Shown: positions 2,735-19,471 of the stretch, one piece after another
Layout of the letters: each line of letters starts with the position of its first letter
Numbering within the stretch: position 1 is the first letter of the stretch
Assembly: GCA_964621195.1 (NCBI GenBank)
Contig: CAZULJ010000005.1
Span: 11,168-43,833, forward strand
DNA length: 32,666 nt
From: an uncultured Candidatus Saccharibacteria bacterium
GTDB lineage: Bacteria > Patescibacteriota > Dojkabacteria > SC72
Direction: 5' to 3'
Notes under the pieces: generated by a model
What the model saw: only the letters and a program-made list of their open reading frames with translations
The model's database searches: none
Told to the model about the DNA's origin: nothing
Program-made: the position numbers and the translations under genes

Positions 2735-3499
2735 ATGCATATTTATTTCACAATTGTCATTTTTGTAATAGGTACTACGATTGCAAGCTTTTTAAATGCA
2801 TTGCTGTATAGAATTGATAACGGATATAAGTATCCGGAAATATTTATAAAAGGCTCTCACTGCGAAAAGTGTAGTAAACAACTATCTTGGTATGAATTAA
2901 TACCAATTATATCTTTTGTAATATTTCGTGGAAGATGTAAACAGTGTGGATATAAAGTACCACTCTACTATCCAGTATCCGAGTTTTTTCTTGGTTTATC
3001 ATTTGCATCATCTTTTTACTTCCAGCAGAATTGGAGTATATATATCTTGATTATTTTCCTCTTTACCTTTTCATATTTTGATAGGATATATAAAGGTATA
3101 CAGAAGGATTTAGTGCATATTTTCTTGGGATTTGCATTAGTATCCTTTGTTATAAATACTGTTGTTATTGGGGAATTACCAGCAAATTCGATACTATTCT
3201 CTCTGATACTTGCACTTTTTATCTATCTACTAACTAAGTTGCTAAGAAAACCCTTTGGAATTGGTGATATCTTAGTCCTTATCGGTATGGGTTTTATATT
3301 ACCAATATATATATACATTGGCTTTATATATACCTTCCTGCTTACCTCCTTAATATATGCATTGATTATGATATGTCTTAAGAAGGCAACATTGAAAACT
3401 TCTATGCCCCTACTCCCTTTTATGTATATATCCTTCGGTATTACAATATTACTAGGTGAATATATTCTCTTAATTTTAGAAGCAACAAATCTAATATGA
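2735..3499 (+). CDS. pilD: Prepilin peptidase PilD (A24A family)
   Basis: Zn-binding Cys pairs (SHCEKC ... RGRCKQC), ELIPIISF, catalytic Asp motifs (YFDRI and GIGD), multi-TM protein. Confidence 0.93.
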   Translation: MHIYFTIVIFVIGTTIASFLNALLYRIDNGYKYPEIFIKGSHCEKCSKQLSWYELIPIISFVIFRGRCKQCGYKVPLYYPVSEFFLGLSFASSFYFQQNWSIYILIIFLFTFSYFDRIYKGIQKDLVHIFLGFALVSFVINTVVIGELPANSILFSLILALFIYLLTKLLRKPFGIGDILVLIGMGFILPIYIYIGFIYTFLLTSLIYALIMICLKKATLKTSMPLLPFMYISFGITILLGEYILLILEATNLI

Positions 3500-4062
3500 A
3501 ATATAAAGGTTTTACTTTGGTAGAAGTGTTAATCGTAATGGGAATATTAATCATCCTTATTGCCATAGGTGTTGGTGTTGGTAGGTATGCAATAGATAGG
3601 GCGAACAGGGTAAAGCATCAAGATGCTGCAGATCAACTCTTTACCGCTTTAGTAAAATACAAACTAGACAACAAAGTATATCCAGGCATTGGTACATGTA
3701 GCGGTTGCATTGATGAGCAGTTTTTCGCAGAAGCTCTTGGATATAAAGGAACAAATTCTTTGCTGAAAAATTATGTAGAAGATGGAGCATTCGATGGCGG
3801 TACTGATGCCTCATACTATTACTATGTAGATCCAGTCACAAAACAATTTGCAATAGTGTGCGTATCGTTCGGTGGTATAGATGATGAGGAGAATAAAGGG
3901 CACTACTGTACTGGAGATGGTATTGGTACTCAACCAGTTGGTAACCCCCTAACAAAAAATGAAATAGGTTCTGTGGAGAGTGGAGATGCTGCATATGTAG
4001 ATATTATTCGTGGTTTTGATGTATCAGACTGGCAGCTAAATGAAGGCTTTGCAGTAAACTAG
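3496..4062 (+). CDS. Type IV pilin, paralog of 2134..2661
   Basis: MKYKG|FTLVEVLIVMGILIIL. Shares AADQLFTAL, GGTDA.YY, CVS.GG..DE and YCTG.G with the first pilin. ATGA overlap with pilD. Confidence 0.88.
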   Translation: MKYKGFTLVEVLIVMGILIILIAIGVGVGRYAIDRANRVKHQDAADQLFTALVKYKLDNKVYPGIGTCSGCIDEQFFAEALGYKGTNSLLKNYVEDGAFDGGTDASYYYYVDPVTKQFAIVCVSFGGIDDEENKGHYCTGDGIGTQPVGNPLTKNEIGSVESGDAAYVDIIRGFDVSDWQLNEGFAVN

Positions 4063-4124: not shown

Positions 4125-5045
4125 ATGTTTAAGAAATCTGCCTTCTATTACGGTTATACCTTGGCCGAAATCCTTGTAGTTCTAATGATCGTTATTATCC
4201 TTGGTGGTATGGGAGCATATTCTTTCTCAGGATTAAGAGATACTATCTTAGTAAAACAGAATATTGAAGAGATAAAGCAGGACATGCAGTTAGTTCAACA
4301 GAAGGCTATGTTAATTGAAAAAAGATCAGATGAGGGGTGGATATACGGTATTGGTATAGATTTTAGTCATGTAAACGAAGGGAGGTATACATTCTTTAAG
4401 TGGTGTTCACCATTCCCATCATATGGTGATCCTGCTACAAGATCTGAGATAATAGCTTACAATCCAGATCTTGGTGATATTGGCTATCCTTTGGGTGATG
4501 GTACATTCAACGGAATTTTACCAACAGATCAGGAACATGTTTTCTTAGAGGAAAGTTTCTGTGATCCTACATTAGGAACTGCTGTGGTTAGTATGCCTGG
4601 TCTTGAAGAGGGTAAAATTAATGCTGGTTTTAATATCGGTCTATTAAATGATGCCAGGTATGTTGTGTTTGAAGCCGTAACCGGTCGTGTTTTCCTATAC
4701 AAATCTGATGGATGGCCAATAAACTATAACGAGTCTGGAGAATATGATCCAGCGCCTGTATTAGGAATTGTAATTATGAGAAATCAAGGCCAGATGGCAG
4801 ATGTTTTACAGATAGGTTCTTTGTCTGGTGCTGTAACACAAAGCACTGTTAAAGATCCTGAGATTTTGGAATACATCATCCCTGAGACTCCGATTGATTT
4901 GGATCCTGTTCCTGACCCTACAGAGGAAGAACCACCTTTTATCCATCCTCCTGCACCAATAGACCTTGAAGACCCTATTGATAACTGGATATTACCTGTT
5001 CTTCCTGAATATAATGAAATTGATCCTTATAGACCTCTTTTATAA
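4125..5045 (+). CDS. Minor pilin, FimT/GspH-like position, with a Pro/Asp/Glu-rich C-terminal tail
   Basis: G|YTLAEILVVLMIVIILGGMG class III signal. First of four consecutive minor pilins. Confidence 0.75.
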   Translation: MFKKSAFYYGYTLAEILVVLMIVIILGGMGAYSFSGLRDTILVKQNIEEIKQDMQLVQQKAMLIEKRSDEGWIYGIGIDFSHVNEGRYTFFKWCSPFPSYGDPATRSEIIAYNPDLGDIGYPLGDGTFNGILPTDQEHVFLEESFCDPTLGTAVVSMPGLEEGKINAGFNIGLLNDARYVVFEAVTGRVFLYKSDGWPINYNESGEYDPAPVLGIVIMRNQGQMADVLQIGSLSGAVTQSTVKDPEILEYIIPETPIDLDPVPDPTEEEPPFIHPPAPIDLEDPIDNWILPVLPEYNEIDPYRPLL

Positions 5046-5611
5046 TGCAATTAAAGAAGAAATCTAAACAATATGACGGCCTTGGTTTTGTAGAAGCTTT
5101 AATAGCTATTATGGTATCGGGAATAGTTGCAACTGTTTTAATAAATATCGCAGCATCTGCAATGAGAGAACTCATTAAACTAGATATTGAAGATGCACAG
5201 GCCCATCATGCAAGATCTGCTGCTGTTATCGTTCAAAATATGGCTAATAAAGAAAGACTGCAGGATGATGAAAACATCTTTGAAGACTTAGAAGAGAACA
5301 CCTGTTATCGAATTGATAAAAGTGGTGATAATTACGAATTTTACGATATCAATGGTGATGGAAGGTATACAGAAGGCGAAAGAGATAGATATAAGACGGA
5401 AGCAATAATAACGGATGGTGTAAATGACAATGAAGAGGATTACTTTAGGATAGTGTGTATTGAGAGTAATACTAGGGCGAACGCAGATCCTTCCGATGAC
5501 ACCAATAAAGTATTTATTAGTGTAATTATTGGTTTTAACAAGGTTGATGGGGAATTTACTTCCTCTGCGAATGTAAAGGATTATAAATATTATGCATTGA
5601 TAAACCTATGA
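5045..5611 (+). CDS. Minor pilin, PilV/GspI-like
   Basis: G|LGFVEALIAIMVSGIVATVLI class III-like signal with E5. TAATG-type 1-nt overlap with the upstream gene. Confidence 0.72.
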   Translation: MQLKKKSKQYDGLGFVEALIAIMVSGIVATVLINIAASAMRELIKLDIEDAQAHHARSAAVIVQNMANKERLQDDENIFEDLEENTCYRIDKSGDNYEFYDINGDGRYTEGERDRYKTEAIITDGVNDNEEDYFRIVCIESNTRANADPSDDTNKVFISVIIGFNKVDGEFTSSANVKDYKYYALINL

Positions 5612-6329: not shown

Positions 6330-7292
6330 ATGACAAAAAACATAAAAAGTATGTACTCTGGGCAAGCAATTGCCATCGTTATGGTTATACTTGTAGTTGC
6401 AACTGTATTGGGAGCATCACTCTACTCAAGAACACTGAAAAACAAGGATGCAGCAATCAATACAAAAGATTCAATGCTCGCAGTTGAGCAAGCAGACAGC
6501 TTACTTGACCTATTTGTCCGTGCCGACTATCAATTCCTCCAAGATATGTATGCCACTATTCAACAGGATGGAGAAAAGACTTTTGATGATCTTGGTCAGC
6601 TTAGAACTTTTCTGTCAGACTATAACATAGATACTGGGCTGTTGGACAAGGAGGATGCATGGTGTGATGATGGTAGTACAGGGTCATCAATAAAACTAAC
6701 TATTAGCGAAGCAGATCCTGCAGACTTTGTTGATGTTCGAGTTGGTTCTTCAAGAGTTTTTAATTTGGCAGAAAGCGGGCTTGTTGCAACTGCCCCATGT
6801 GGTGTTACTTTGACCTTTGAGGCTAGAGACAACGCGCCTACAATATTTGTGGTAAAGGAAATTTATGGAGATGGTACACATATTGAAGAGTATGTTAACG
6901 ATGGTGCCTCCGTTGACGATATGATTGCATACTGTTTTGAACCAGATGGCTCGGCATGTTCAGATATCTCTGGGTTTGCGGCCCCAGCTGGATCCTTTCA
7001 AGCTCTTAGTGCAGGTAGAACTCTCGGTATAGATTTTGCTAAAACAAGAAATGGGTATCCACTTGCTCAAATTAGAATTATACCTTTGAACTTAACTTTA
7101 GGGGTATCTCATACTCCAACAGGTACATGTACTGGAAATGAGTTCTCATATATGAAAGTGAATGCTGCAGTTAACTGCTATGGATCCTTTAGAGAGAAGC
7201 AGATTATGATCCCAGGTGCTGATAGTCTTGGCTACTCTTCACTTTTTGACTATACTATTTACAATATTGGTACATTAAGACCTAATAACTAA
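6330..7292 (+). CDS. Minor pilin, PilX/GspK-like
   Basis: SG|QAIAIVMVILVVATVLG lacks E5, as is typical of PilX/GspK. It is the last and largest of the four-gene minor-pilin set. Confidence 0.72.
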   Translation: MTKNIKSMYSGQAIAIVMVILVVATVLGASLYSRTLKNKDAAINTKDSMLAVEQADSLLDLFVRADYQFLQDMYATIQQDGEKTFDDLGQLRTFLSDYNIDTGLLDKEDAWCDDGSTGSSIKLTISEADPADFVDVRVGSSRVFNLAESGLVATAPCGVTLTFEARDNAPTIFVVKEIYGDGTHIEEYVNDGASVDDMIAYCFEPDGSACSDISGFAAPAGSFQALSAGRTLGIDFAKTRNGYPLAQIRIIPLNLTLGVSHTPTGTCTGNEFSYMKVNAAVNCYGSFREKQIMIPGADSLGYSSLFDYTIYNIGTLRPNN

Positions 7293-7309: not shown

Positions 7310-7696
7310 ATGGCAGAGCAAATTAGAAAAATATTGATAGTAGAGGATGAGGCTCCCCTACTCGATTCTTATGCAGAATTAGTAGAAGCTGCAGGGTTTG
7401 TACCTCTAAAAGCTCTTGATGGATATCAGGGTTTAGATATATTGGCAAACAACATTGGCCAGATTGATCTAGTATTACTTGACCTTATGATGCCAGGAGT
7501 TGATGGCCTTGAGGTTATAAAAACGATAAAGGCAAATGAAGAAAAGTATGGAGAGATGCCAATAGTTATTCTTACAAACATGACTAGTGAGTCCGTTGTT
7601 AAGGAAGCTTTCAATATCGGGGCATCATCATACTTAGTAAAAACAGATCTTGATTATGAAGGTCTTATGAAAGAGTTAGACAAGTTCTTAGGTTAA
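7310..7696 (+). CDS. Single-domain response regulator (CheY-like receiver)
   Basis: ILIVEDE, phosphoacceptor LLDLMMPGVDG, IVILTN and YLVK. No output domain (128 aa). Confidence 0.93.
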   Translation: MAEQIRKILIVEDEAPLLDSYAELVEAAGFVPLKALDGYQGLDILANNIGQIDLVLLDLMMPGVDGLEVIKTIKANEEKYGEMPIVILTNMTSESVVKEAFNIGASSYLVKTDLDYEGLMKELDKFLG

Positions 7697-7727
7697 GGGA
7701 ATCTTATTTTTATAGCTGCCCTGGAAA

Positions 7728-8756
7728 GTGAAAATAGTTTTAAACAAAAGAAAATCTTTCTGGATTGTTTTTATGGTTTTATTCCTGTCTCTCCTAATAG
7801 GCTTAGTATATTTTTTCTATTCTAGCAACTTGTATAGGAATTATTTTTCTGGAAGATTTGATAGGTACGGAGAACTACTTTCTAAATGTGATGAAAAAAC
7901 AAATGATGGGAAGAGAATTTATAAATGTTCTGCACTTCTGAATTACGTTGATGTAAGTAAACAAGAGAAGGATTGTATTATCTTATCATATATTTCAGGT
8001 GATCCAAGTATTGAAAACAAAGAGATTTGTGAAGATTTTGAAATTATTGAATGGGATGAAGAAGTATTTAAAAAGGAAGAGAGATTTCCCGTATATCTAG
8101 AATTTATATATACTGGGAACTACATTCAGGGTTTTTCACTTGAGAAAATTCAAATTGAGTGGATGACAGATGATGAAACATCGATATTTACAAATTTACT
8201 TTCAGAGATTGGTGTCTCACTTACGAATTTAGCCACAAGGAGAGATTACAACATAGAACAGAGTGGATATTACTTCCAACCCCTTTCTGAAGAATTTTTT
8301 AATGGTAGTGTTGGAGTTGTTAATTTTGCACAAGCCAGAATTAAGGAATTTGCATTTGATGAAGGTATTGTAACTGTAAATTCTGAACTACTTATCAATG
8401 GGTTTTCAAGAGAATTAACATTAATAAGTAGGAAATTCCTCTATCAAAGAGATCCTATGGATGAGAATCTGCTAGAGGTTAAAAGAGAGAATTTATCTGA
8501 CTTAGATTTTAATAAAGAATATCAATTATCTGCTTTTTATCTTACTAAGTCAATTGATGAAGAGACATTTAAGAAAAAATGTTCAAACCCTGAAGAGATT
8601 GACATTTTTACACAAGCTTTTTGTTCTAGCTTTGAAACTTTGGAGATATCGGAGTATGTAATAGATATTGAGAAGTATTTAAATGAACAATTACTACTCG
8701 AGGGGGGCTTGCAACTGGATAAGGTAAAATTTTTTTATCTAGTTACATATGAGTAG
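7728..8756 (+). CDS. Hypothetical single-pass membrane protein, cassette 1 partner (paralog of 15174..16208)
   Basis: GTG start, N-terminal basic residues plus a TM helix, six Cys alignable with 15174..16208. Overlaps the next gene by 8 nt. Confidence 0.75.
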   Translation: MKIVLNKRKSFWIVFMVLFLSLLIGLVYFFYSSNLYRNYFSGRFDRYGELLSKCDEKTNDGKRIYKCSALLNYVDVSKQEKDCIILSYISGDPSIENKEICEDFEIIEWDEEVFKKEERFPVYLEFIYTGNYIQGFSLEKIQIEWMTDDETSIFTNLLSEIGVSLTNLATRRDYNIEQSGYYFQPLSEEFFNGSVGVVNFAQARIKEFAFDEGIVTVNSELLINGFSRELTLISRKFLYQRDPMDENLLEVKRENLSDLDFNKEYQLSAFYLTKSIDEETFKKKCSNPEEIDIFTQAFCSSFETLEISEYVIDIEKYLNEQLLLEGGLQLDKVKFFYLVTYE

Positions 8757-11139
8757 AAAAATATTTCAAAAAATTCTACTTTTATTATTACTTCCATTGC
8801 TAATCTTTATAAGCAAATCAGACACTTATGCACAAAGTACATACGATTGTACTCGTTGGGGTATGTATTGTCAGTTACCTGGAGGTATAATAAATGGTTT
8901 TTGGTATGAATGGTACTGGGGAGGATGCAGAAGATACCCAGATTCTGGAGGGTGGACTTGGCGTTGTACCGGTACAGATTCAGATTGTACAGAAAGTAGA
9001 TATAGGACTTACTACAGCTCTGAAGATGATTGTCTTGCCGGTAGAGATCCTAAGGGTACTGGCTGTTGCGGTAGTACTCCAACAATTCCACCTTGTAATG
9101 ATTGTACACTAGGCTCTTGTCCTGCTCCGCTAACAGAAACAGGTCTTGAGGAGTTCAAACTTTTGAATTATCGTGTATGCCAAAGAACAGGTAGCTGTGC
9201 GGGTCCTAAATACGGAGATTGTTACGAGAACAAAACAGGATCCGACCCAACAGCAAGTATTCAAGTATTCCCCGATGGTGTAGCCTCTACCCTTGGTTGT
9301 GTCTCTAATACCTACTCTAGCACCTATGTAAACAACAGAGTTAATATGGTAGGAACATATACAGACGCAGATGGGGGAACAGATATAGAAGCGATATACG
9401 TGTGGTTTAAAACGGATATTACAACCCCTAATACCCCTAAGTATATAGACCTAAATAACGATTCGGGTCAAACAGGTAGAACATACACAAGTAATAGCTT
9501 TGGCTTCATGATGCACAAAGAGGGAGGCAACTGGGTAGCATATGTTCCTAGCCTTGTAGGTGGAGGTAGTGATAAATGGGTAAGAGCTAGCATGTCAGGT
9601 AGTAACTTTGATATTTTGGGTCCTAGTGGTAGTGCATTAATCCGTATAGAGAATCCAGTAACAAATATTTCTGGTAACAATGTAACCTTAAACTTCTATG
9701 CCCACTTTGGTCCATCAGCAGCTAGTGATGGCTTGTACAACATATTTGTAATGGCTAATGATGTATTTGGATTTACCCCCTATGACAACTACGGTCCAGG
9801 AGTAACTAAGATGGGAGATTACTTTGATGAGGAAGAGATAAGGTATCATCAGGTATGGAGTGACAGTAGTAGAGATTGGGGATTGGACAAGATCTCCCCT
9901 ACCATCTCTTACTTAAATACTGAAGTTACTGCTCCTACTAAGATAAAGTTCTCTTGGGAAGCGGGTGATTTAAGGAACATTTATGGCATAGTTGGAAATC
10001 TATACAGATCTGATGGAGTTGTTAACTTTGAATCAGTACGAGATGTTACGTTAACATCTCTTGGGACAAAAACGGTTAATACCCCGTACCTACCAGAAGA
10101 ATTGGGCGAAAACGTTGTAGGTCATCTCAACAATGAATTTTTTGTAAGAGCGATGACACCTGGTAGTGTAAATCTTACAGGCGAGGTTGAAATGAACGTT
10201 GGTAGTAATAGAGAGGGCAGTATAATTTACTATGTTACTGCATTCGATATTGCATGCAATCCAGGAGCATTGTATTCAACATATGATCTTGAAGACTGGA
10301 TTATTACCTATGGAGGACTACTCTATTCTTCTACAGGTATAGAGTTTTATGTAAAGAATGTTGATGACCCAAATCTCTGGAATCCGGTGCTACTCTTAAA
10401 CAAAATCAGTCCACTATTTGCCGACATTTCAAGCGAATTGTATGGTAATGCTCTCAGTTTTCCATCTCCTTTGGAAAAGAGTGTTCAAAACAAATCCTTC
10501 TCTGTTAGCCCATTTGTAGCCTACAAGAGCTTTGACTTCTACAACGACTTGAGAAGGAGCTACGAAAGAAGAGAATTAGGTTTGCCCTCGAGTGTCAGCA
10601 GGTTAAATCCAAGTATATCTACTCTAACTGGTTACCTAAGTGGATATGGATCTGGTTCGGTTAAGGTCTTAAATAGAGTTGGAGATCTTACAATTGGAGA
10701 TACAAATGCTTTCTACTGCGATCAAAAAGGTTTGTTTTTCGTAAGTGGAGACTTGATAGTGAATCATGAAATATTGAATTCTGATAGAAACTCCGATGCA
10801 TGTATTTTTGTTGTAGATGGGGATATGATAATTAATCCTGGACCAGATTCTACGAATGGCGCGATTGGGACCTTGGGATATGATGAATTGAATGGATACT
10901 TCTTAGTGAATGGTTCTGTAACTATCAACGAAGACCCTTTCTACAATGGATTGTATATTAATGGAGGTATTCAATCTCTTGGTGGTATAGATATGAACAG
11001 GTATCTTGGACTTGATCATAGAAGCTTGTATCCTTTATTTTTTGTTGAGAACAGCTCAAAATATGGGTATACAAGTAGTGAATTAATTGGAGATCAAATA
11101 GATATTGTAAAGGTTGAACCAGGATACAAACCATATTAA
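8749..11139 (+). CDS. Secreted Cys-rich modular protein, putative adhesin (cassette 1)
   Basis: Sec-type signal (..SDTYA|Q), Trp/Tyr/Cys-rich N-terminal domain, one Cys repeat, beta-rich core, C-terminal domain with repeated (F/V)V.G.L.I motifs. Ends IDIVKVEPGYKPY. Confidence 0.75.
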   Translation: MSRKIFQKILLLLLLPLLIFISKSDTYAQSTYDCTRWGMYCQLPGGIINGFWYEWYWGGCRRYPDSGGWTWRCTGTDSDCTESRYRTYYSSEDDCLAGRDPKGTGCCGSTPTIPPCNDCTLGSCPAPLTETGLEEFKLLNYRVCQRTGSCAGPKYGDCYENKTGSDPTASIQVFPDGVASTLGCVSNTYSSTYVNNRVNMVGTYTDADGGTDIEAIYVWFKTDITTPNTPKYIDLNNDSGQTGRTYTSNSFGFMMHKEGGNWVAYVPSLVGGGSDKWVRASMSGSNFDILGPSGSALIRIENPVTNISGNNVTLNFYAHFGPSAASDGLYNIFVMANDVFGFTPYDNYGPGVTKMGDYFDEEEIRYHQVWSDSSRDWGLDKISPTISYLNTEVTAPTKIKFSWEAGDLRNIYGIVGNLYRSDGVVNFESVRDVTLTSLGTKTVNTPYLPEELGENVVGHLNNEFFVRAMTPGSVNLTGEVEMNVGSNREGSIIYYVTAFDIACNPGALYSTYDLEDWIITYGGLLYSSTGIEFYVKNVDDPNLWNPVLLLNKISPLFADISSELYGNALSFPSPLEKSVQNKSFSVSPFVAYKSFDFYNDLRRSYERRELGLPSSVSRLNPSISTLTGYLSGYGSGSVKVLNRVGDLTIGDTNAFYCDQKGLFFVSGDLIVNHEILNSDRNSDACIFVVDGDMIINPGPDSTNGAIGTLGYDELNGYFLVNGSVTINEDPFYNGLYINGGIQSLGGIDMNRYLGLDHRSLYPLFFVENSSKYGYTSSELIGDQIDIVKVEPGYKPY
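9547..10424 (+). repeat. 878-bp direct repeat, copy 1 (identical to 13594..14471)
   Basis: Line-by-line manual comparison found no mismatch. Constant offset 4047 nt, no indels. Confidence 0.92.
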
Positions 11140-11219
11140 GAAAATATATAGAACTCTTTAAACTTTCATGTAATAATGGATTTGTAAAGAGGAAGGTGTA
11201 ATTTTTTACTAAAAATTAA

Positions 11220-12887
11220 ATGCTGCCTATTAAAAAATATATCCTAATATTCTTAGCTATAATCGCTGGAATCTTAGCTATCTTCTTTGGCTACACATAC
11301 TATTTAATGGTGACTTCTAATGGCTCTCATCTTACTATGTTTGTTGAGACAAAAGAGGATGTTTTAGGCCAGAAGATTAGAACAGATTTCCCTATCCAAG
11401 GTGAAGATGATATTACATACGTGTTCCCTGTTGTTTTTGAAAAAGTATTAGAAACAGATTCCGTATACAAATTTACTCTTTCTCCTACTGTATTCCCGAA
11501 AGACTCTGTTCGTGGTGAGAAATTTGAGTATGAGTTGGGTAAAGATAAATATGAGGGAGACATTGATATCAAAAGTATTGAACCAGGGGCAAAGGTATAT
11601 ATAAATCTCCAGTATGATTTGTCAAAGAATTTAAGATACTTCCTTGAATACTCCGTTTGTACTGTAAAGAAGGCTTACTCTGATCTCTTCAAATTAGATT
11701 TAACCTGTGGAAGAGGCAATTGTATAGTAAATCGTGATATTGATAATTGGGATATAAAGAAAATATCAAGCGAGATTACTGAGAAAGTAGAATATTTTGA
11801 AAGTTACAATCCGGAGGAGCTATCTACAAGATTGTTAAATTTCTTCATTACAGATGATTTCGGATATTTCAATCCTGAGGCTTTTAGATATGTATCTACT
11901 CAAACATCAAGGCCTGATGGAACATTTAGTTTCGCAACTCAGAGCATTAACAATCCTCAGGATGGTAAAAACAGTACACCTTCAATATTTTGGCTACTTA
12001 CGGGTGTCTCTGGAGCTTTAGAAAGAGAGGATATCGATTTAGAAGGGTACATGTCTACTGTTTTAGGATATTTAGATGGTGAGACATACGGTGAGGCATA
12101 CTTCCAGAACTGTACCGCATCTTCGTATATTATTGAAAACTTAAAATCTTGTTCATCTCAGTCTTGTGAAGGTGTAAAAAAGAAGGCATTCGAATATTGC
12201 GAGGAGACATTACAAACTGCTATCGCTAAGTACGATACCACTGCCCAAGCATTTTCCCAATATACAAGAAAATCGATATTGAGAGGATATCTCTTCGGTA
12301 TTTCTTCGGAAATGATTAAATACAACAAGATTGCACAGGCAATGGGTCTCGAACCAAAGTATACAATGAACGATTTGAGTTCTTTCTATGAGAAGGGTAA
12401 AGGGGTCTTAGGAAATTCAGAGGAGATTTTACCAATCTGTTATCAATTGAAATCGGCAAAAGACATATACAATGAATATCCTTTAGATTCTTTGCTTTTA
12501 GATATTGAGATATTGTATGGAAAGATTGATGGCTTAGAAACCATCTGCGACAAAGATTCTAGAAATACTTTCTGTGAGTTATCAATATCCGAAAAATTAG
12601 TATGTGTTGATGCATTAATGGGTTACAAGAATATTGAGGCAAAAAATCTTCTTTCGGATATTTTCTACAGACATTACTTTGAGAGTCCTGGGGCGGTGAA
12701 GATGGTGACATATGAAAACTGGAGATTCTCACCATTTAGTGAAGAAAATCCTAACTCTTATACGAAGATTGAAGATTATGGATATTTGACATCTATCGTT
12801 GATGATGAGGGATTTGTAACACACTCTGCACATATTGGTGATTCATATTACTTTATAAATTTACTGAGACTTTTAAACAATGAGTAA
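11220..12887 (+). CDS. Hypothetical single-pass membrane protein, cassette 2 partner (555 aa, Cys-containing, not obviously homologous to the other two partners)
   Basis: N-terminal TM helix, beta-like N-terminal part, helical-looking C-terminal part with many Cys. 8-nt overlap with the next gene. Confidence 0.72.
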   Translation: MLPIKKYILIFLAIIAGILAIFFGYTYYLMVTSNGSHLTMFVETKEDVLGQKIRTDFPIQGEDDITYVFPVVFEKVLETDSVYKFTLSPTVFPKDSVRGEKFEYELGKDKYEGDIDIKSIEPGAKVYINLQYDLSKNLRYFLEYSVCTVKKAYSDLFKLDLTCGRGNCIVNRDIDNWDIKKISSEITEKVEYFESYNPEELSTRLLNFFITDDFGYFNPEAFRYVSTQTSRPDGTFSFATQSINNPQDGKNSTPSIFWLLTGVSGALEREDIDLEGYMSTVLGYLDGETYGEAYFQNCTASSYIIENLKSCSSQSCEGVKKKAFEYCEETLQTAIAKYDTTAQAFSQYTRKSILRGYLFGISSEMIKYNKIAQAMGLEPKYTMNDLSSFYEKGKGVLGNSEEILPICYQLKSAKDIYNEYPLDSLLLDIEILYGKIDGLETICDKDSRNTFCELSISEKLVCVDALMGYKNIEAKNLLSDIFYRHYFESPGAVKMVTYENWRFSPFSEENPNSYTKIEDYGYLTSIVDDEGFVTHSAHIGDSYYFINLLRLLNNE

Positions 12888-15165
12888 AGTAATTAAATAT
12901 TTAAAGGTATTCTCAATATTGTTGCTATCTGTTGCTACTGTATTGATTTTGAAAAATGACAACCTATATGCTTGGAACGGATGTTGTTCCCCCTCTTCTC
13001 AATGGTCTGGAACATTATGGAATGGATGCTGTTACTCTGGTGGTGGTGGTGATAACTGTTGCTCCTTGGGCGATGCCATTGCTTCTGGTTGTGAAGGTAT
13101 TCTTCCATGTCCGAACTGTCAAGGTGGTGATCCACCATGTGAGGAGTGCACGCTAGGTAGTTGTCCAGCTCCTTTAACTAATACAGGTGATCCTGAGTTT
13201 AAGCTTGAGGATTACAGAAGGTGCCAGAATGGTGAATATTGTGATGATGAATGGAAATACGGAGATTGCTATGAAAACAAAACAGGATCTGATCCAACAG
13301 CTAGTATCCAGGTATTCCCTGATGGAGTAGCCTCCACCCTTGGTTGTGTGTCTAATACCTACTCTAGTACCTATGTAAACAACCGAGTTAATATGGTAGG
13401 CACATACACTGATGCAGATGGAGGAACAGATATAGAAGCGATATACGTATGGTTTAAAACAGAGAGTGCAATCCCTAATACCCCTAAGTATATAGACTTG
13501 AATAACGATTCGGGTCAAACAGGTAGTACGTACACAAGTAATAGCTTTGGATTCATGATGCACAAAGAAGGCGGTAGCTGGGTCGCGTATGTACCTAGCC
13601 TTGTAGGTGGAGGTAGTGATAAATGGGTAAGAGCTAGCATGTCAGGTAGTAACTTTGATATTTTGGGTCCTAGTGGTAGTGCATTAATCCGTATAGAGAA
13701 TCCAGTAACAAATATTTCTGGTAACAATGTAACCTTAAACTTCTATGCCCACTTTGGTCCATCAGCAGCTAGTGATGGCTTGTACAACATATTTGTAATG
13801 GCTAATGATGTATTTGGATTTACCCCCTATGACAACTACGGTCCAGGAGTAACTAAGATGGGAGATTACTTTGATGAGGAAGAGATAAGGTATCATCAGG
13901 TATGGAGTGACAGTAGTAGAGATTGGGGATTGGACAAGATCTCCCCTACCATCTCTTACTTAAATACTGAAGTTACTGCTCCTACTAAGATAAAGTTCTC
14001 TTGGGAAGCGGGTGATTTAAGGAACATTTATGGCATAGTTGGAAATCTATACAGATCTGATGGAGTTGTTAACTTTGAATCAGTACGAGATGTTACGTTA
14101 ACATCTCTTGGGACAAAAACGGTTAATACCCCGTACCTACCAGAAGAATTGGGCGAAAACGTTGTAGGTCATCTCAACAATGAATTTTTTGTAAGAGCGA
14201 TGACACCTGGTAGTGTAAATCTTACAGGCGAGGTTGAAATGAACGTTGGTAGTAATAGAGAGGGCAGTATAATTTACTATGTTACTGCATTCGATATTGC
14301 ATGCAATCCAGGAGCATTGTATTCAACATATGATCTTGAAGACTGGATTATTACCTATGGAGGACTACTCTATTCTTCTACAGGTATAGAGTTTTATGTA
14401 AAGAATGTTGATGACCCAAATCTCTGGAATCCGGTGCTACTCTTAAACAAAATCAGTCCACTATTTGCCGATATTTCAACCGAAATGTATGGTAACTCTT
14501 TGAGTAATCCTGGTGTATTAGATAAGAGCAATGTGACGAAGTCTTACAGTATTAGTCCGTTTACGGGATACACAGTCTATGATTTCTATAAAGATGTAAA
14601 AACAACCTTTGAAAGAAGGGAATTAGGAATCGAAAATATTGTGAGATTAAACCCCTCAACATCTTCTCTTACTGGGAGTTTAGGTGGGGGGACAGTTAAA
14701 GTATTAGATAGAAATGGGAATCTTACAGTTGGTGATGCTAATCCTTTTGTTTGTAGCGGTAAGGGAATATTCTTTGTAAGTGGTAATTTGACAATAAATA
14801 ACTCAATACTTAATTCTGATCTGGCATCTGATGCATGTATTTTTGTTGTAGATGGAGATATGATAATAAATCCTGGTAGAGATTCCTCGGGGGGATTGAT
14901 AGGGTATGACGAATTGAATGGGTATTTCCTAATCAATGGAAATATAATTATCAATGAAGATAGCGCATTTGATGGGATATATGTTAGTGGCGGTCTGCAA
15001 TCTCTCGGTGGTTTTGAGATGAGTAGATACTTGGGTCTCGCATATAGAGATATGCATCCACTACTTGTAGTAAACCATCACTCAAAATATGGAATATTTA
15101 GTAGTACACTAATTGGAACTCCAATTGATATTGTAAAAACTGAGGTAGGTTTTAAGATATATTAA
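12880..15165 (+). CDS. Secreted Cys-rich modular protein, putative adhesin (cassette 2), paralog of 8749..11139
   Basis: Signal ..DNLYA|W, distinct short tip with WNGCC twice, one Cys repeat, core nearly identical to cassette 1. Ends IDIVKTEVGFKIY. Confidence 0.75.
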   Translation: MSKVIKYLKVFSILLLSVATVLILKNDNLYAWNGCCSPSSQWSGTLWNGCCYSGGGGDNCCSLGDAIASGCEGILPCPNCQGGDPPCEECTLGSCPAPLTNTGDPEFKLEDYRRCQNGEYCDDEWKYGDCYENKTGSDPTASIQVFPDGVASTLGCVSNTYSSTYVNNRVNMVGTYTDADGGTDIEAIYVWFKTESAIPNTPKYIDLNNDSGQTGSTYTSNSFGFMMHKEGGSWVAYVPSLVGGGSDKWVRASMSGSNFDILGPSGSALIRIENPVTNISGNNVTLNFYAHFGPSAASDGLYNIFVMANDVFGFTPYDNYGPGVTKMGDYFDEEEIRYHQVWSDSSRDWGLDKISPTISYLNTEVTAPTKIKFSWEAGDLRNIYGIVGNLYRSDGVVNFESVRDVTLTSLGTKTVNTPYLPEELGENVVGHLNNEFFVRAMTPGSVNLTGEVEMNVGSNREGSIIYYVTAFDIACNPGALYSTYDLEDWIITYGGLLYSSTGIEFYVKNVDDPNLWNPVLLLNKISPLFADISTEMYGNSLSNPGVLDKSNVTKSYSISPFTGYTVYDFYKDVKTTFERRELGIENIVRLNPSTSSLTGSLGGGTVKVLDRNGNLTVGDANPFVCSGKGIFFVSGNLTINNSILNSDLASDACIFVVDGDMIINPGRDSSGGLIGYDELNGYFLINGNIIINEDSAFDGIYVSGGLQSLGGFEMSRYLGLAYRDMHPLLVVNHHSKYGIFSSTLIGTPIDIVKTEVGFKIY
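13594..14471 (+). repeat. 878-bp direct repeat, copy 2 (identical to 9547..10424)
   Basis: As for copy 1. Confidence 0.92.
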
Positions 15166-15173
15166 AAACTTGA

Positions 15174-16208
15174 ATGAAAATACTTGTTAGTAAAAAAACA
15201 TCTGTAATATTTACAATGCTTGGTGTTATTCTTGTTCTTTCATCTGTTCTGGGAGGGTATTATCTCTATGAGAGAAATGTAATCATAAATGGTCAGTATG
15301 AATTAGATAAATACAGAGAGGAAACCGAGCTATGTACAAGAGAAGGTTTTTTTGGAAAGTTGAATTTTCGCTGTGAAGGATACATAGATATTTACCAAGA
15401 AAAGGATGGTAGAGATTGTTTCTCAATGGCTTTATTAAGTCCAGAAAAGGAGCTCTACTATAAGGAGATATGTGAACCAAAAGATTCCATAGAGTGGGAT
15501 AGAGGGACAATGATTTCTGAGAAAAAAGTCCCAGTATTTGTAGAGTTTTCATATTCAAGGCCAATGTTCGGTGGTTATGTCATAGATAGCATCAAATACA
15601 CCCTTATGTCCGATGAAGAGATTCAGAATTTTGCAGGCAAACTTGTGGAAGAAAGAATACCTGTACCTCATCTACGTACCCAACTAGAAGAGGATCTGGA
15701 ATATAAAGGTTACTATTTATCAAATGAACTTGAAGTTGCTGGGGGGGGAGGCCTAAGTTTTTTTGTACTCTTTAGTGCCAGTATAAAAGAAGTCGCGGTA
15801 TTGGGTGATAATTTAAGTATTACAGTACAGTTCTCAAACGAAGGTAAGGAATATGAATCAGTTTTTGTTGTAAAATCGGTTATGTTCCAAAAGGATATGT
15901 CTACAAATTACATCTCTTTAGATGTGAGTAACATTCAGGACTATGAATTCTCCGATTCTTCTCAAATCCTCTTGATGTATCTTGGAGAAGACACCAACCT
16001 TAGAAAGGAAGAGATTCTTTCCTACTGTTCTTCAGGTAATATATTGGCTGAATTCTTCTCCATTTGTTCAATAGTTGAAGATATTAATATAGATTCTTAC
16101 CGTATTGCAAATGCCGAAGAATACTTTAGATCTTCTTTAGAAAAGAATGCTGATGGCTTCGTTGATCTTGATAAGTTTCTGCTAAGTGGAATTCTTTTTA
16201 GATTGTAG
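15174..16208 (+). CDS. Hypothetical single-pass membrane protein, cassette 3 partner (paralog of 7728..8756)
   Basis: Shares DC..., KEICE...IEWD, PV(Y/F).EF.Y and M(T/S)D(D/E)E plus a C-terminal Cys pair with 7728..8756. Contains a G8 run at 15741-15748. Confidence 0.75.
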   Translation: MKILVSKKTSVIFTMLGVILVLSSVLGGYYLYERNVIINGQYELDKYREETELCTREGFFGKLNFRCEGYIDIYQEKDGRDCFSMALLSPEKELYYKEICEPKDSIEWDRGTMISEKKVPVFVEFSYSRPMFGGYVIDSIKYTLMSDEEIQNFAGKLVEERIPVPHLRTQLEEDLEYKGYYLSNELEVAGGGGLSFFVLFSASIKEVAVLGDNLSITVQFSNEGKEYESVFVVKSVMFQKDMSTNYISLDVSNIQDYEFSDSSQILLMYLGEDTNLRKEEILSYCSSGNILAEFFSICSIVEDINIDSYRIANAEEYFRSSLEKNADGFVDLDKFLLSGILFRL

Positions 16209-16210
16209 AA

Positions 16211-19200
16211 ATGAAAATTGGAAAATTAAAAACAATTATACTTTCAATATTTTTTCTGACAACATTGTTTGTTGTGTTAGAAATATCTAAAGGAGATGTT
16301 TCTGCAATGATCTGTGGAACTAACTACTATTGTACAACATCAAATCAATGGGTTAATTCTTATGTTCGTATCGGTGGTGGCTCATGCCATTACATTACTT
16401 ATTACTCGTGCAATGGAAATGATACAAACTGTCAGGAAGACTATGTTGATATATATTCTGATGCAGAATGTGCAGTAAAAACTCACGATGACTATGGTTG
16501 TTGTATATATGATTCACCTCCTGCTTGTAACAATTGTACACCATCGTCTCCACCTGCTTGTCCAGCGGGTACAACAGAGACAAATACGGGAGACTTCCAT
16601 TCCTCGACAACTTCAAGTTGTGATAGAGGCTCTGGTTGTGATCCAAGATATAATACTAGTACGAGAAACTGCTACTGTTCACTTTGTACGCCACCATCAT
16701 GTACCCCAACCTACTCTACAACCAATCTAGGTTTTGGTTCAATATCTCTTTCTTGTCAAAACTCTCCCACTGGAGACTCTCGTTGTGATTACAGATCAAA
16801 TACTTGCTACTGTTACCAATGTACTCCTGCAAACTGTCCTGCTGATTTGAGCAATACGGATCTCGGTGTTGGAGTTAGTACTCATACGGTATCTTGTACC
16901 AATGCATGTAGCTCAAGTAACAGTCGGGCCTGTTATTGTAGAGATTGTACATTACCAGTTCCTTCTGGAACAACATTAACAAATACTGGCCGACAATCTA
17001 CTGATCCTACCTATCAAAGCACAAGCTGTAGTAAGGGTACCGGATGTACTCCAAAAAGTGCACCATTGTACTGTACAAGATGTACTCCTACAGCATGTGG
17101 CCCCACCTACGCTACTTCAAACCAGGGATATGGCACCTTGAACTTTACTTGTAATAATACTTTGGCTTCCTGTGGTACTGAGACCAGAGCTTGTTACTGC
17201 TATAGCTGTACACCACCGGCCTGTGCACCAACCTACAGTACTACAAATTATGGATATGGCTCAGTTACATTAAGCTGTACGAATGCATGTAGTACAACTA
17301 GTAACAGAACCTGTTATATTGATAGATGTAGTAACTGTACACTACCAAACTGCCCATCTCCACTCACAAATACCCCTACCACAGCAGATCCAAATATGGA
17401 ACTTACAAACTTCAGATCATGTACACGTAGTGCACCTTGCGGTGGTCCAGCAAACTATGGAGCATGTTATGAGGTTGTAAGCCCACAACCAACAACAAGT
17501 TTACAAATATATCCTGATGCTGCAAATGTTTATAACTTCTCGAGTAGTACACATACGGGAACTAGAACACCGCTTTACAACCTTAATGACCCAATACCTA
17601 TGACTGCTACATATACAGATGTCAATGGAGCCACTGATATTGAGGCTGTATCTGTTTGGTTTAGAGATGAAAGTCTTTCTGGGGAGATAAATACTCCGTT
17701 AGTTTTTATGGAGACGGGTGGACCTTCGGTACCTGCACCACAAACGGAAACAAATAATAGCTGGGGCTTTATGATGAGATGGAATGGCTCGACATGGCTT
17801 CCATATGTACCTTCTTACCCTTCAGCGCCTAGTACTCCAGCTTGGGTCCCTGCCTTGTATGCTAGCAATTCTTTTGTAATTTCAGGTCCTAATGGACTAC
17901 AAATGGTGAGAGTTACAATAGGTCATTCTCTTCAGAGTAATATCACTAGGTCTGGAAATAACGTAGTATTACCATTCCAACTTAGTTTTAACTTCTCCTC
18001 AGGATATGATAGCGTAGCTCAGGTTGATTACCAGACTTACCTAATGGGTAACGATGTCTTCAGTTTTACACCAAGTGATAACTATGCCTTCTCGGTTGAG
18101 GGTTACTGGCAGGGTGGTCAATTACGATACCGAACGAGCCAATTACCTGCACAGCTTTATGCAAGGCAGTGGGCATTAACAGGGTATACATGGAGTGTAG
18201 ATAAGGATGTTCCAGAAGTAGAAGACCTTACTATGACAGTAATTGGTGATACAACTTTAAGATTAAGTTGGAATGTAACTGATTCTAGAGAAATATATGC
18301 TGTTGTGGGAAATATCTATGCATCAATTAGTATGCCTCCAAACCCTGATGATCTAGTAATTACTGGCACAGGTTTGGATGTGAACTCCCCTCATCAACTT
18401 ATTACAGATACTACAGATCTTGCAAAATTGAATACAGGTTATGCTTTCAGAGGTTTAAATATTGGCGGTACAACATATACAAACAATGTAACAATCGATA
18501 TCGGTTCAAATATTGAGGGAAGTCTTGTAGTATACCTCACGGCTTTTGATATGGCCGGTAATATGAGTACAAGAAGTTTAACCTACTCTCTTGGCGATTG
18601 GATAGCTACGTATGGTGGATTTGTATACTCTTCTGAGGGTAGAGACTATGAAATGAAGACAATAGAAAGTGATACCGCTTGGGATTCAGTACCTGTTCTA
18701 GCTGGGCTGGATCCAACCCTTGCGGATGTCTCTACAGAGCTTTTCGCAGATAATCAAAGTAGTGGTACATTGCCATCAGCTCTTGATAGAAGTACCGAGT
18801 TACGTTCTTACCACATGAGACCATTTAGTGTGAATGTAGAAATGGATAGTCTGTATCAGGAATTAAAACAGGCTTACAATGATAGGGAAATTGAAGGAAA
18901 GGTGGATCTAACCTTGGACTTACCTATGATTACAAGTCTAAATGGTAATCTAAGTGATATTGGGAGCTGTACTGACTCTTCAAGGGTATGTATTTTAAAA
19001 AGACAAGGAGATTTGGATGTCGGGAATGTATCAACGTTTAATTGTGATCAATGGGGAGTATTCTTTGTAGAAGGAAATCTAACTATTTCAAGAAACATTG
19101 TTAATGCAAATCCTTCCTATGACGCATGTATCTTTGTAGTTGGAGGTGAAGTTTTAATTGAAGATGGACAGGCACATTCTAACGCTTTACTGATAGGGTA

Positions 19201-19471
19201 TGATCAGATCAATGCATATATAATGGCGGATGGAGCAGTAAATATCCAAGCTGAGCTTGGTGCAGCTGCAAAGTATGATGGTGTATTTGTAGGCGGTGGT
19301 TTACATAGTTTAACAGGCATTAATATGGATAGAAGTCTTAAGTTGGCAGACAGAAATATATACCCTGCTCTACTTGTTAAATATCATCCTAAATACTCGG
19401 TATTGAGTAATCTTGTATTTGGTAGTCAGATTGATATACTAAAAACAGAATTAGGTTTTAAACCATACTAG
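16211..19471 (+). CDS. Large secreted Cys-rich repeat protein, putative adhesin (cassette 3, 1086 aa)
   Basis: Signal ..GDVSA|M, tip alignable to that of cassette 1, seven Cys repeats, diverged core (TYTDVNGATDIEAVSVWF vs TYTDADGGTDIEAIYVWF). Ends IDILKTELGFKPY. Confidence 0.75.
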   Translation: MKIGKLKTIILSIFFLTTLFVVLEISKGDVSAMICGTNYYCTTSNQWVNSYVRIGGGSCHYITYYSCNGNDTNCQEDYVDIYSDAECAVKTHDDYGCCIYDSPPACNNCTPSSPPACPAGTTETNTGDFHSSTTSSCDRGSGCDPRYNTSTRNCYCSLCTPPSCTPTYSTTNLGFGSISLSCQNSPTGDSRCDYRSNTCYCYQCTPANCPADLSNTDLGVGVSTHTVSCTNACSSSNSRACYCRDCTLPVPSGTTLTNTGRQSTDPTYQSTSCSKGTGCTPKSAPLYCTRCTPTACGPTYATSNQGYGTLNFTCNNTLASCGTETRACYCYSCTPPACAPTYSTTNYGYGSVTLSCTNACSTTSNRTCYIDRCSNCTLPNCPSPLTNTPTTADPNMELTNFRSCTRSAPCGGPANYGACYEVVSPQPTTSLQIYPDAANVYNFSSSTHTGTRTPLYNLNDPIPMTATYTDVNGATDIEAVSVWFRDESLSGEINTPLVFMETGGPSVPAPQTETNNSWGFMMRWNGSTWLPYVPSYPSAPSTPAWVPALYASNSFVISGPNGLQMVRVTIGHSLQSNITRSGNNVVLPFQLSFNFSSGYDSVAQVDYQTYLMGNDVFSFTPSDNYAFSVEGYWQGGQLRYRTSQLPAQLYARQWALTGYTWSVDKDVPEVEDLTMTVIGDTTLRLSWNVTDSREIYAVVGNIYASISMPPNPDDLVITGTGLDVNSPHQLITDTTDLAKLNTGYAFRGLNIGGTTYTNNVTIDIGSNIEGSLVVYLTAFDMAGNMSTRSLTYSLGDWIATYGGFVYSSEGRDYEMKTIESDTAWDSVPVLAGLDPTLADVSTELFADNQSSGTLPSALDRSTELRSYHMRPFSVNVEMDSLYQELKQAYNDREIEGKVDLTLDLPMITSLNGNLSDIGSCTDSSRVCILKRQGDLDVGNVSTFNCDQWGVFFVEGNLTISRNIVNANPSYDACIFVVGGEVLIEDGQAHSNALLIGYDQINAYIMADGAVNIQAELGAAAKYDGVFVGGGLHSLTGINMDRSLKLADRNIYPALLVKYHPKYSVLSNLVFGSQIDILKTELGFKPY
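16526..17473 (+). repeat. Seven degenerate ~40-51-aa Cys/Thr-rich protein repeats (C-T-P/L-x2-C-P...TN.G...C...C...CY-C/E)
   Basis: Units end in RNCYC, NTCYC, RACYC, PLYC, RACYC, RTCYI and GACYE. Diverged at DNA level. Confidence 0.85.

Follow-up and report, generated by a model that had tools for sequence, protein, structure and literature searches.

We analyzed a 32,666-nucleotide stretch of a metagenome contig (assembly GCA_964621195.1, contig CAZULJ010000005.1, positions 11,168 to 43,833), referred to below as the window, which Pfam and NCBIfam annotation of its open reading frames (ORFs) identifies as a chromosomal type IV pilus cluster from Candidatus Dojkabacteria. Within this cluster lie two tandem paralogs, gene A (8749 to 11139, 796 residues) and gene B (12880 to 15165, 761 residues), both on the forward strand, as are all features given below unless stated otherwise. 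A and B have most probably undergone recurrent and recent gene conversion. As the cause of their patchy resemblance, conversion had already been proposed in a preliminary description of the window, and incongruent trees, independent assemblies, and the haplotype of another strain (contig L039) now agree in supporting it. The mechanism itself is already known; the gene family, its setting in a pilus locus of the candidate phyla radiation (CPR), and its organization into modules paired with cognate accessory genes are new, and so is the finding of both converted and unconverted haplotypes among public sequences. We found nothing relevant in the literature on gene conversion in Patescibacteria.

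Identity steps between genes A and B

We aligned the window against itself at a constant offset of 4047 and calculated synonymous (dS) and nonsynonymous (dN) divergence by the Nei-Gojobori method on the codon alignment. The N-terminal parts of A and B are far apart (dS 1.30, dN 0.59), and identity and bootstrap trees both indicate that the type 1 N-module of A (8749 to 9207) was not homogenized. Even the motif CTLGSCPAPLT (9103 to 9135 and 13147 to 13179), which is the same in the two proteins, has 9 of its 33 nucleotides changed, in keeping with the recoding described earlier. An older step of 113 codons follows, in frame and without indels, in which 9208 to 9546 (S1a) and 13255 to 13593 (S1b) share 89% nucleotide identity (dS 0.63, dN 0.023). 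The 30 synonymous and 6 nonsynonymous codons previously counted by eye in this segment, S1, were recovered exactly. They correspond to 37 nucleotide differences in 36 codons, one Leu codon differing twice, with a spectrum of 24 transitions and 13 transversions that is not A-specific, and the longest identical run is 26 nt.

The next segment, S2, is identical at all 878 of its 878 nucleotides (9547 to 10424 in A, 13594 to 14471 in B; dS and dN both 0), which is the longest exact run between the genes. It encodes residues 267 to 559 of A, i.e., two beta-sandwich domains and half of a linker. The first mismatch occurs at 10425, from which nucleotide identity at the 4047 offset drops to about 58% and then to background as indels shift the register. 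In the C-terminal part, dS is saturated (1.75) and dN reaches 0.31. The fall in similarity between the C-terminal domains (10425 to 11139 in A, 14472 to 15165 in B) is indeed abrupt and accompanied by three small indels, but amino acid identity there is 60 to 62% and not the “roughly half” first estimated.

The segment-wise dS values thus change at abrupt boundaries, and two further calculations place the steps far outside what chance would give. The probability that all 37 differences would fall within the first 339 of the 1217 sites is about 3e-21. In a GENECONV-style test (1301 polymorphic sites from six codon-aligned sequences, permuted after Sawyer), the concordant A-B run spans 496 sites, compared with a maximum of 34 in 2000 permutations. 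The earlier argument that protein-level selection is unable to produce synonymous identity is also upheld, as the A/B pair is old at its ends and young in its middle. Synonymous constraint is excluded by the normal divergence of orthologs at synonymous sites in the same segment (proportion of synonymous differences, pS, 0.19 to 0.81). The S1 step could be an older conversion tract or, equally, reflect divergence fixed when the second copy was duplicated or acquired.

Segment histories and strain haplotypes

For comparison, 33 related Dojkabacteria loci were fetched. All 33 are syntenic and carry a single A/B-type gene located after an accessory gene of either the X1 type (about 340 residues) or the Y type (about 515 to 555 residues). 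The accessory type is always paired with the N-module type, X1 with type 1 and Y with type 2. Both modules occur in tandem only in the species of the window, and no near-identical paralog pair was present among the 33 loci, nor was any other detected in scans of Genome Taxonomy Database (GTDB) genomes and metagenomes, which also revealed no other genome of this species. The sister lineage (L032 and L033) has only the order response regulator-Y-B-X2-C, and window positions 11136 to 15198, including the spacer upstream of Y, are collinear with L033 positions 8257 to 12363. Y-B is therefore the resident module, with B collinear to the single gene of the sister lineage, and X1-A (about 7697 to 11139) is extra.

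Pairwise identities and bootstrapped neighbor-joining trees were used to trace the history of each segment. In the N-module, A groups with the related protein P0003 (89% bootstrap) and B with P0004, P0005, P0006, P0009, and P0011 (85%), and A and B are never sisters (0%). Accordingly, the A N-module is 66% identical to P0003 by BLASTP (63% in the alignment) and 43% identical to B. For S1 and S2, A and B pair with 100% bootstrap and are placed with P0005 and P0006 (96 to 98%). In the C-terminal domain, support for the pair falls to 33%, with A as an orphan on a long branch, while B is 66 to 73% identical to eight orthologs and 61% identical to A. The statement that N-modules and C-terminal domains remain distinct while the core is alike is therefore borne out, and a gene pair that is old and divergent at its two ends but young in between is what conversion classically leaves behind.

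Lineages also recombine with one another at these joints. L001, L002, and L011 represent three lineages that are about 88.5% identical in nucleotide sequence genome-wide, and they are mosaic at the locus (L001 10001 to 13400, L002 10001 to 13340, L011 1 to 2760). Between L001 and L002, the accessory genes and N-modules are unrelated, and homology starts exactly at KYGDCYE, which corresponds to window position 9208. The core of L001 is 100% identical to that of L011 up to about A residue 546 (window positions about 10385 to 10390) and then 98% identical to L002 through the C-terminal domain. This crossover lies at most about 40 nt from the right boundary of the tract in the window, within the conserved linker, which is modeled with low confidence. 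From these sequences, recombination end-points appear to recur at two short conserved segments between three modules, within and between genomes. The recurrence may simply follow from where homology exists, or it may mark a true hotspot.

Independent assemblies of the same species were retrieved as Logan contigs, which we take to be built with k=31, by exact-protein look-up of Y, X2, the response regulator, and ATG-started X1; exact look-ups of full-length A and of GTG-started X1 gave no match. The same-species contigs come from at least 10 runs in four accession series and are 98 to 99.98% identical to the window. Five of them, from five runs (L034 to L038), carry the A C-terminal domain, the 80-nt spacer, Y, and the B N-module on one contig, and the tandem A-to-Y arrangement is real. 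Contigs L044 and L046 end at 9576 (9546 + 30), and L035, L037, and L038 end at 13398 (13368 + 30). L034 to L036 and L040 to L043 start at 10359/14406 (10389 − 30), L039 starts at 13608 (13638 − 30), and L034 ends at 13637. These ends lie exactly k − 1 = 30 nt from copy-specific sites, the distance at which sequence common to both copies forces a break in a k=31 graph. For the runs of L044 and L046, the end at 9576 would then mean that the two copies are alike from 9547 onward there as well.

The suggestion to compare tract boundaries in relatives proved fruitful, as end-points differ between strains that are otherwise about 99.97% identical. In S1, the B copy of L034 has b-alleles at the first 13 of the 37 sites and a-alleles at the remaining 24, so that A-B identity in this strain begins near 9322 to 9337 and not at 9547. 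The A copy of L034 to L036 differs from that of the window at 12 sites in 10389 to 10418, where the A and B copies of the window agree at 12 of 12, and A-B identity in L034 to L036 ends at 10388 and not at 10424. Outside the patches 10389 to 10418, 10794 to 10890, and 13384 to 13593, a single site over the 3.28-kb L034 contig differs from the window; the conversion events must consequently be extremely recent. Since the recombinant junctions fall between diagnostic sites 6 to 15 nt apart, k-mers spanning them must exist in the reads, and the junctions are not inventions of the assembler.

A further patch was observed within the A C-terminal domain. At 10794 to 10890, the A copies of L034 to L038 differ from the window at 16 clustered sites, and at 10 of these 16, located around a shared DACIFVVDGDMIINPG motif, A and B of the window agree. 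This may be another B-to-A micro-conversion, although the pattern is not clean. Elsewhere in the cluster, contig L044 is 99.5% identical to the window over 7.7 kb, and 34 of its 36 differences are grouped in three clusters (4373 to 4463, 5275 to 5593, and 6884 to 6908), which lie inside minor-pilin-like genes (4125 to 5045 and 5045 to 5611) and a gene at 6330 to 7292. This suggests that recombination patches also affect minor pilins.

The direction of transfer can be approached through the third beta-sandwich domain, D3 (A residues 401 to 515), and through contig L039 (run SRR33038822). L039 runs continuously from 13608 through the B C-terminal domain into X2 and C and is identical to the window from 14628 on. 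Within S2, its identity to the window is 94% over the first 390 nt and 89% in the linker, and only 56% at the protein level in D3. D3 of L039 is 64 to 67% identical to P0005 and P0006 of the sister lineage, with which it groups at 89% bootstrap, while D3 of the window is 45 to 46% identical to these proteins and forms a deep branch. In the simplest reading of these sequences, L039 would have kept a native B-type D3 and B of the window would have received the D3 of A (about 14080 to 14425 in the second S2 copy). The transfer may have been non-reciprocal or reciprocal; on the B side, the B-linked D3 of L039 is native-type and that of window B is A-type. At the right edge of the tract, by contrast, the A gene carries B-type sequence over 36 nt (10389 to 10424), i.e., the transfer went from B to A. 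Opposite directions inside one 878-nt tract imply at least two superimposed events. The description of the process as homogenization of a core is thus correct in locating conversion in the core but too simple, because the last event swapped a domain that is only 56% identical. Similarly, of the nested tracts of different ages proposed earlier, several events with different end-points were indeed found, but the greater age of S1 is equally explicable by duplication or acquisition.

Gene conversion and competing explanations

These observations fit the following mechanism. A and B would act as full-length direct repeats 4047 bp apart on one molecule, Y-B being the resident module and X1-A an alternative module that other lineages carry in place of Y-B. 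Homologous recombination between the copies, presumably through RecA-dependent repair of breaks or gaps, would repeatedly copy stretches non-reciprocally in either direction. The 878-nt tract would then be the sum of the most recent events, namely, the passage of D3 from A into B and of 36 nt from B into A, and the D3 transfer could have used the well-matched sequence on both sides as homology arms. Tracts would start and stop in short segments with family-wide conservation, namely, the KYGDCYE junction and the linker joining the core to the C-terminal domain, and because homology is available at these conserved joints, whole domains could move as modules. S1 would represent an older homogenization or the time of duplication or acquisition. 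We infer the order and number of events from these patterns.

Several points weigh against this explanation. No recA or other recombination gene is present among the ORFs of the window, which is the extent of that search. The two opposite directions require at least two events or import from another strain. The label “unconverted” for L039 derives from its B-linked haplotype alone, as the A copy was not recovered. One contig, L036, ends at 13255, at the junction of the B N-module and S1, which does not fit the k − 1 rule that all other ends follow; the strain might share the whole of S1, or coverage might drop there. More generally, contig ends could partly reflect strain mixtures within samples instead of differences between copies. 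Finally, the window comes from a metagenome contig in which the identity of the S2 interior rests on assembly and not on reads, and a de Bruijn loop traversal would print one consensus twice, with sparse single-nucleotide polymorphisms (SNPs) popped as bubbles.

Among the alternatives, the one that survives best, although we regard it as unlikely, dispenses with conversion altogether. The core would be the remnant of a single recent tandem duplication or acquisition, and the N-modules, accessory genes, and C-terminal domains would have been imported later. Replacement of modules between lineages does occur at this locus, as seen in L001, L002, and L011, and the S1 step could mark the date of duplication or acquisition. 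However, this model requires multiple imports, independent of one another, whose ends coincide precisely with the edges of the core, and it does not account for the two identity levels within the core (dS 0.63 and 0), for the strain-dependent start (9322 to 9337 or 9547) and end (10388 or 10424) of A-B identity, or for a B-linked haplotype with a native-type D3. Since each of these cases has its donor sequence within the genome itself, intragenomic transfer, as gene conversion assumes, is the simpler reading.

Less probable still is that the two copies differ across 9547 to 10424 and were collapsed or threaded as one consensus by the assembler, the alternative already raised in the preliminary description. 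Besides the origin of the window from a metagenome contig and the loop traversal described above, it draws on the fact that an 878-nt repeat is longer than typical short-read k and insert sizes. On the other hand, S1 was kept copy-specific at one difference per about 9 nt, so that only divergence below about 1 to 2% could hide in S2, and a collapsed divergence of that size would leave the step pattern intact. In addition, the k=31 assemblies of the L044 and L046 runs stop exactly 30 nt past the last copy-specific site, and recombinant k-mers derived from reads place a b-allele at 13368 beside an a-allele at 13384 in L034, and a B-type site at 10418 beside an A-type site at 10425 in the window. 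A weak form of the collapse, with a few SNPs merged within the 878 nt, is possible, but it could not hide the step pattern.

A chimeric contig, in which the assembler joined an X1-A strain and a Y-B strain in tandem, is hardly credible. Related genomes carry either module alone at this place, which makes a strain mixture conceivable. However, the A-to-Y junction lies in unique sequence and has no k-mers in common with the junctions between the response regulator and X1 or between B and X2, and the same junction occurs in the five further Logan contigs from five runs; per-run unitig assemblies cannot share one misassembly. Junction k-mers and independent contigs thus rule out a strain-bubble chimera. 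Selection at the nucleotide level, through an embedded RNA, an overlapping gene, or a regulatory element that fixes synonymous sites, can practically be dismissed: nothing specific supports it apart from the existence of small antisense ORFs at 13174 to 13563 and 14586 to 14954, an allele of part of this segment with 56% identity exists within the species itself (L039), and such selection is ruled out by the normal synonymous divergence of orthologs in this segment (pS 0.19 for L032-L033, 0.43 for L001-L002, and 0.71 for A or B against L032).

Two mechanisms known for sequence variation elsewhere were also rejected. A diversity-generating retroelement is ruled out as there is no reverse transcriptase among the window ORFs, the S1 mismatches are not A-specific, and the repeat measures 878 to 1217 nt and not about 100 to 150 nt. 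A cassette system of the pilE/pilS type is ruled out because A and B are both complete.

Related systems, protein family, and pilus locus

In Helicobacter pylori, bab paralogs exchange segments by RecA-type gene conversion. The bab and sab genes are the closest analogue of A and B in being full-length surface-protein paralogs with chimeric genes and a strain-varying placement of segments. These outer-membrane adhesin paralogs, babA/babB/babC and sabA/sabB, have been reviewed (PMC3960876, PMC4552749). They have no sequence or fold relationship to A and B, whose adhesin function is putative. Furthermore, bab genes share their ends and are diverse in the middle, whereas A and B share the middle and are diverse at the ends, and bab loci are dispersed, whereas A and B lie in tandem, 4 kb apart, in an uncultured CPR bacterium. 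The pairing of X1 with type 1 and Y with type 2 is reminiscent of pilin islands in Pseudomonas aeruginosa, where pilA groups I to V each have their own accessory gene; in both cases, pilus-locus alleles are invariably accompanied by their cognate accessory gene and pass between strains through recombination in conserved flanks. Unlike pilA, A and B are not pilins, their accessory genes are upstream and overlapping, and both alleles are in tandem and recombining.

As in Neisseria pilE/pilS, Mycoplasma genitalium mgpB/MgPar, and Borrelia vlsE, variant segments are copied by homologous recombination with ends in conserved joints. Those systems have one expression site, silent truncated donor cassettes, dedicated cis elements, and unidirectional copying, whereas both A and B are complete ORFs with start codons, are coupled to an upstream gene, and show transfer both ways. 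No specialized recombination element turned up at A/B, where only a generic promoter and terminator scan was made. With PilX1 and PilX2 of Saccharibacteria and with PilY1-type proteins, A, B, and C have in common a large size, a position beside minor pilins in a CPR pilus locus, and signal peptides that are not of the prepilin kind. Efficient binding of Saccharibacteria TM7x to its host requires PilX2 (PMC11623550). Unlike these proteins, A and B show no detected sequence similarity to them and no PilY1/PilC propeller in a Pfam scan (no Pfam or NCBIfam match at E<0.01), and the AlphaFold2 model has no propeller but Ig-like beta-sandwiches and a separate beta-rich C-terminal domain.

To our knowledge, the pilus proteins that confer specificity have been described in little more than a few cultured Saccharibacteria. 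A central part in the attachment of CPR/Patescibacteria to their hosts is ascribed to type IV pili (PMC6744442; PMC11623550). Here, large pilus-locus proteins specific to Dojkabacteria have their domains shuffled between paralogs and strains at the present time, against a background divergence of about 0.03%, which is the behavior expected of host-contact or phage-exposed surface molecules, and the locus offers converted and unconverted haplotypes in public runs for following the process. It also calls for caution among users of metagenome-assembled genomes, as A and B cannot be assembled from k=31 graphs. We infer that the biological role is the reshuffling of binding modules of a pilus-associated host-attachment protein. 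It is possible, though rather doubtful, that the locus as a whole is a modular specificity-switching system for such a protein in an episymbiotic CPR bacterium. If so, accessory gene plus Cys-rich N-module, beta-sandwich core domains, and C-terminal domain would be three exchangeable modules, with the short conserved joints as preferred recombination end-points within and between genomes. The tandem two-module state would be a standing reservoir or an intermediate of cassette replacement, and recombination of one 878-nt direct repeat with the other would remove the A C-terminal domain, Y, and the B N-module, with an L001-like hybrid gene as the product. Host range or specificity of attachment would thereby shift at the pace at which strains diverge.

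Matches to the A/B family in the database search are restricted to Candidatus Dojkabacteria (WS6, CPR). None of the A, B, C, X1, Y, and X2 proteins matched Pfam, NCBIfam, or the PDB in a sequence-profile search, and the family can therefore not be named. At the N terminus, the proteins of the family carry a hydrophobic signal or anchor other than a prepilin leader, and they have a Cys-rich N-module with 14 to 16 Cys. Pfam-based annotation detected no class III signal peptide or N_methyl motif in A/B-type proteins, which are thus not pilins, and no LPXTG-like motif occurs in A, B, or C, i.e., they lack the sortase anchor of the MSCRAMM (microbial surface components recognizing adhesive matrix molecules) class. 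The ORF, the AlphaFold2 model, and Foldseek are consistent with A being a secreted or anchored protein, composed of the type 1 N-module, the beta-sandwich core, the conserved linker, and the C-terminal domain. In the AlphaFold2 model, which was based on 25 homologs (mean predicted local distance difference test [pLDDT] score of 73.6), residues 120 to 515 are confident and all-beta, and residues 594 to 780 form a second confident, beta-rich domain. Foldseek aligned the core with Ig-like domains of ClfA/B, SdrG, Als, and integrin legs, with E values of 1e-6 to 1e-4 and TM-scores of only 0.1 to 0.26. The name adhesin given to these proteins at the outset is thus a reasonable guess, drawn from their position in a pilus locus, secretion signals, fold type, and the analogy with Saccharibacteria PilX2.

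The linker (A residues 519 to 593; 10303 to 10527) has low model confidence (pLDDT 29 to 41) despite its conservation. It is among the most conserved segments of the family, with W517, G522, G523, W544, D559, and E563 invariant, and both right-side recombination joints lie inside it. It might become ordered only upon contact with a partner, or be a site of processing.

The 5′ part of the window contains a PilB fragment, PilC, pilins with N-methylation (N_methyl) motifs, the prepilin peptidase PilD, minor-pilin-like genes including a ComGD-like one, and a response regulator. The variable block follows in the order X1, A, Y, B, X2, and C, flanked 3′ by PilM and two small membrane proteins and then by RNase III, NusB, ClpB, and other housekeeping genes, such that A, B, and C are surrounded by pilus genes. 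The response-regulator receiver gene (7310 to 7696; Pfam Response_reg, E 1.7e-20) forms the conserved left flank of the variable region and lies directly 5′ of the accessory gene in the syntenic loci inspected (L001, L002, L032, L033, L044, and L046). X1 (7728 to 8756), the type 1 accessory gene, encodes 342 residues with an N-terminal membrane helix, and its stop overlaps the A start by 8 nt. It is 38% identical to the L001 gene 5′ of the A-like gene and 27% identical to X2, making X1 and X2 distant paralogs. The GC and GC3 (third codon position) composition of X1-A is without a foreign signature. Y (11220 to 12887), the type 2 accessory gene, encodes 555 residues, and its stop overlaps the B start by 8 nt. 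It is 53% identical to the L002 gene 5′ of its B-like gene, and L032 and L033 have a 555-residue gene at the equivalent position.

The 80-nt spacer between A and Y (11140 to 11219) is homologous to the intergenic region between the response regulator and Y in the sister lineage. Compared by eye with L032 and L033 (TAGAACTCTT.AAC.TTTCATGTAATAATGGA..TGTAAA), it seems to exceed the approximately 69% nucleotide identity of the adjoining Y coding region. A promoter and terminator scan of 7600 to 16300 returned fewer matches than shuffled sequence and none in the spacer. The spacer may be a promoter or regulatory element, although a simple sigma-70 scan was empty there.

The X2 gene (15174 to 16208), while identical among strains of the window's species, is hypervariable between related genomes, with about 42 to 50% nucleotide identity (about 20% at the amino acid level) between genomes in which the flanking genes are 88 to 98% identical (compared with L001 12389 to 13393, L002 12305 to 13333, and L011 about 1254 to 2219). 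In the 5′ part of the cluster, two pilin paralogs (2134 to 2661 and 3496 to 4062) flank the prepilin peptidase gene and share 55% protein identity, with 72% DNA identity over the first 153 nt and no sign of recent conversion between them. The response-regulator receiver is a stand-alone gene, and a histidine kinase is encoded 20 kb away on the opposite strand (28262 to 30487).

Gene C (16211 to 19471), a third paralog of 1086 residues, stands outside the conversion. C shares 36% identity with A and with B, compared with 81% overall between the latter two. The N-terminal region of C, about 390 residues long (16211 to 17400), is expanded and Cys-rich, with 48 Cys in the first 420 residues. The motif CT(P/L)xxC(P/A)xx(L/Y)(S/T)xT, which occurs once in A and once in B as CTLGSCPAPLT, was found by a regular-expression scan in at least four copies in C (residues 159, 204, 333, and 376).

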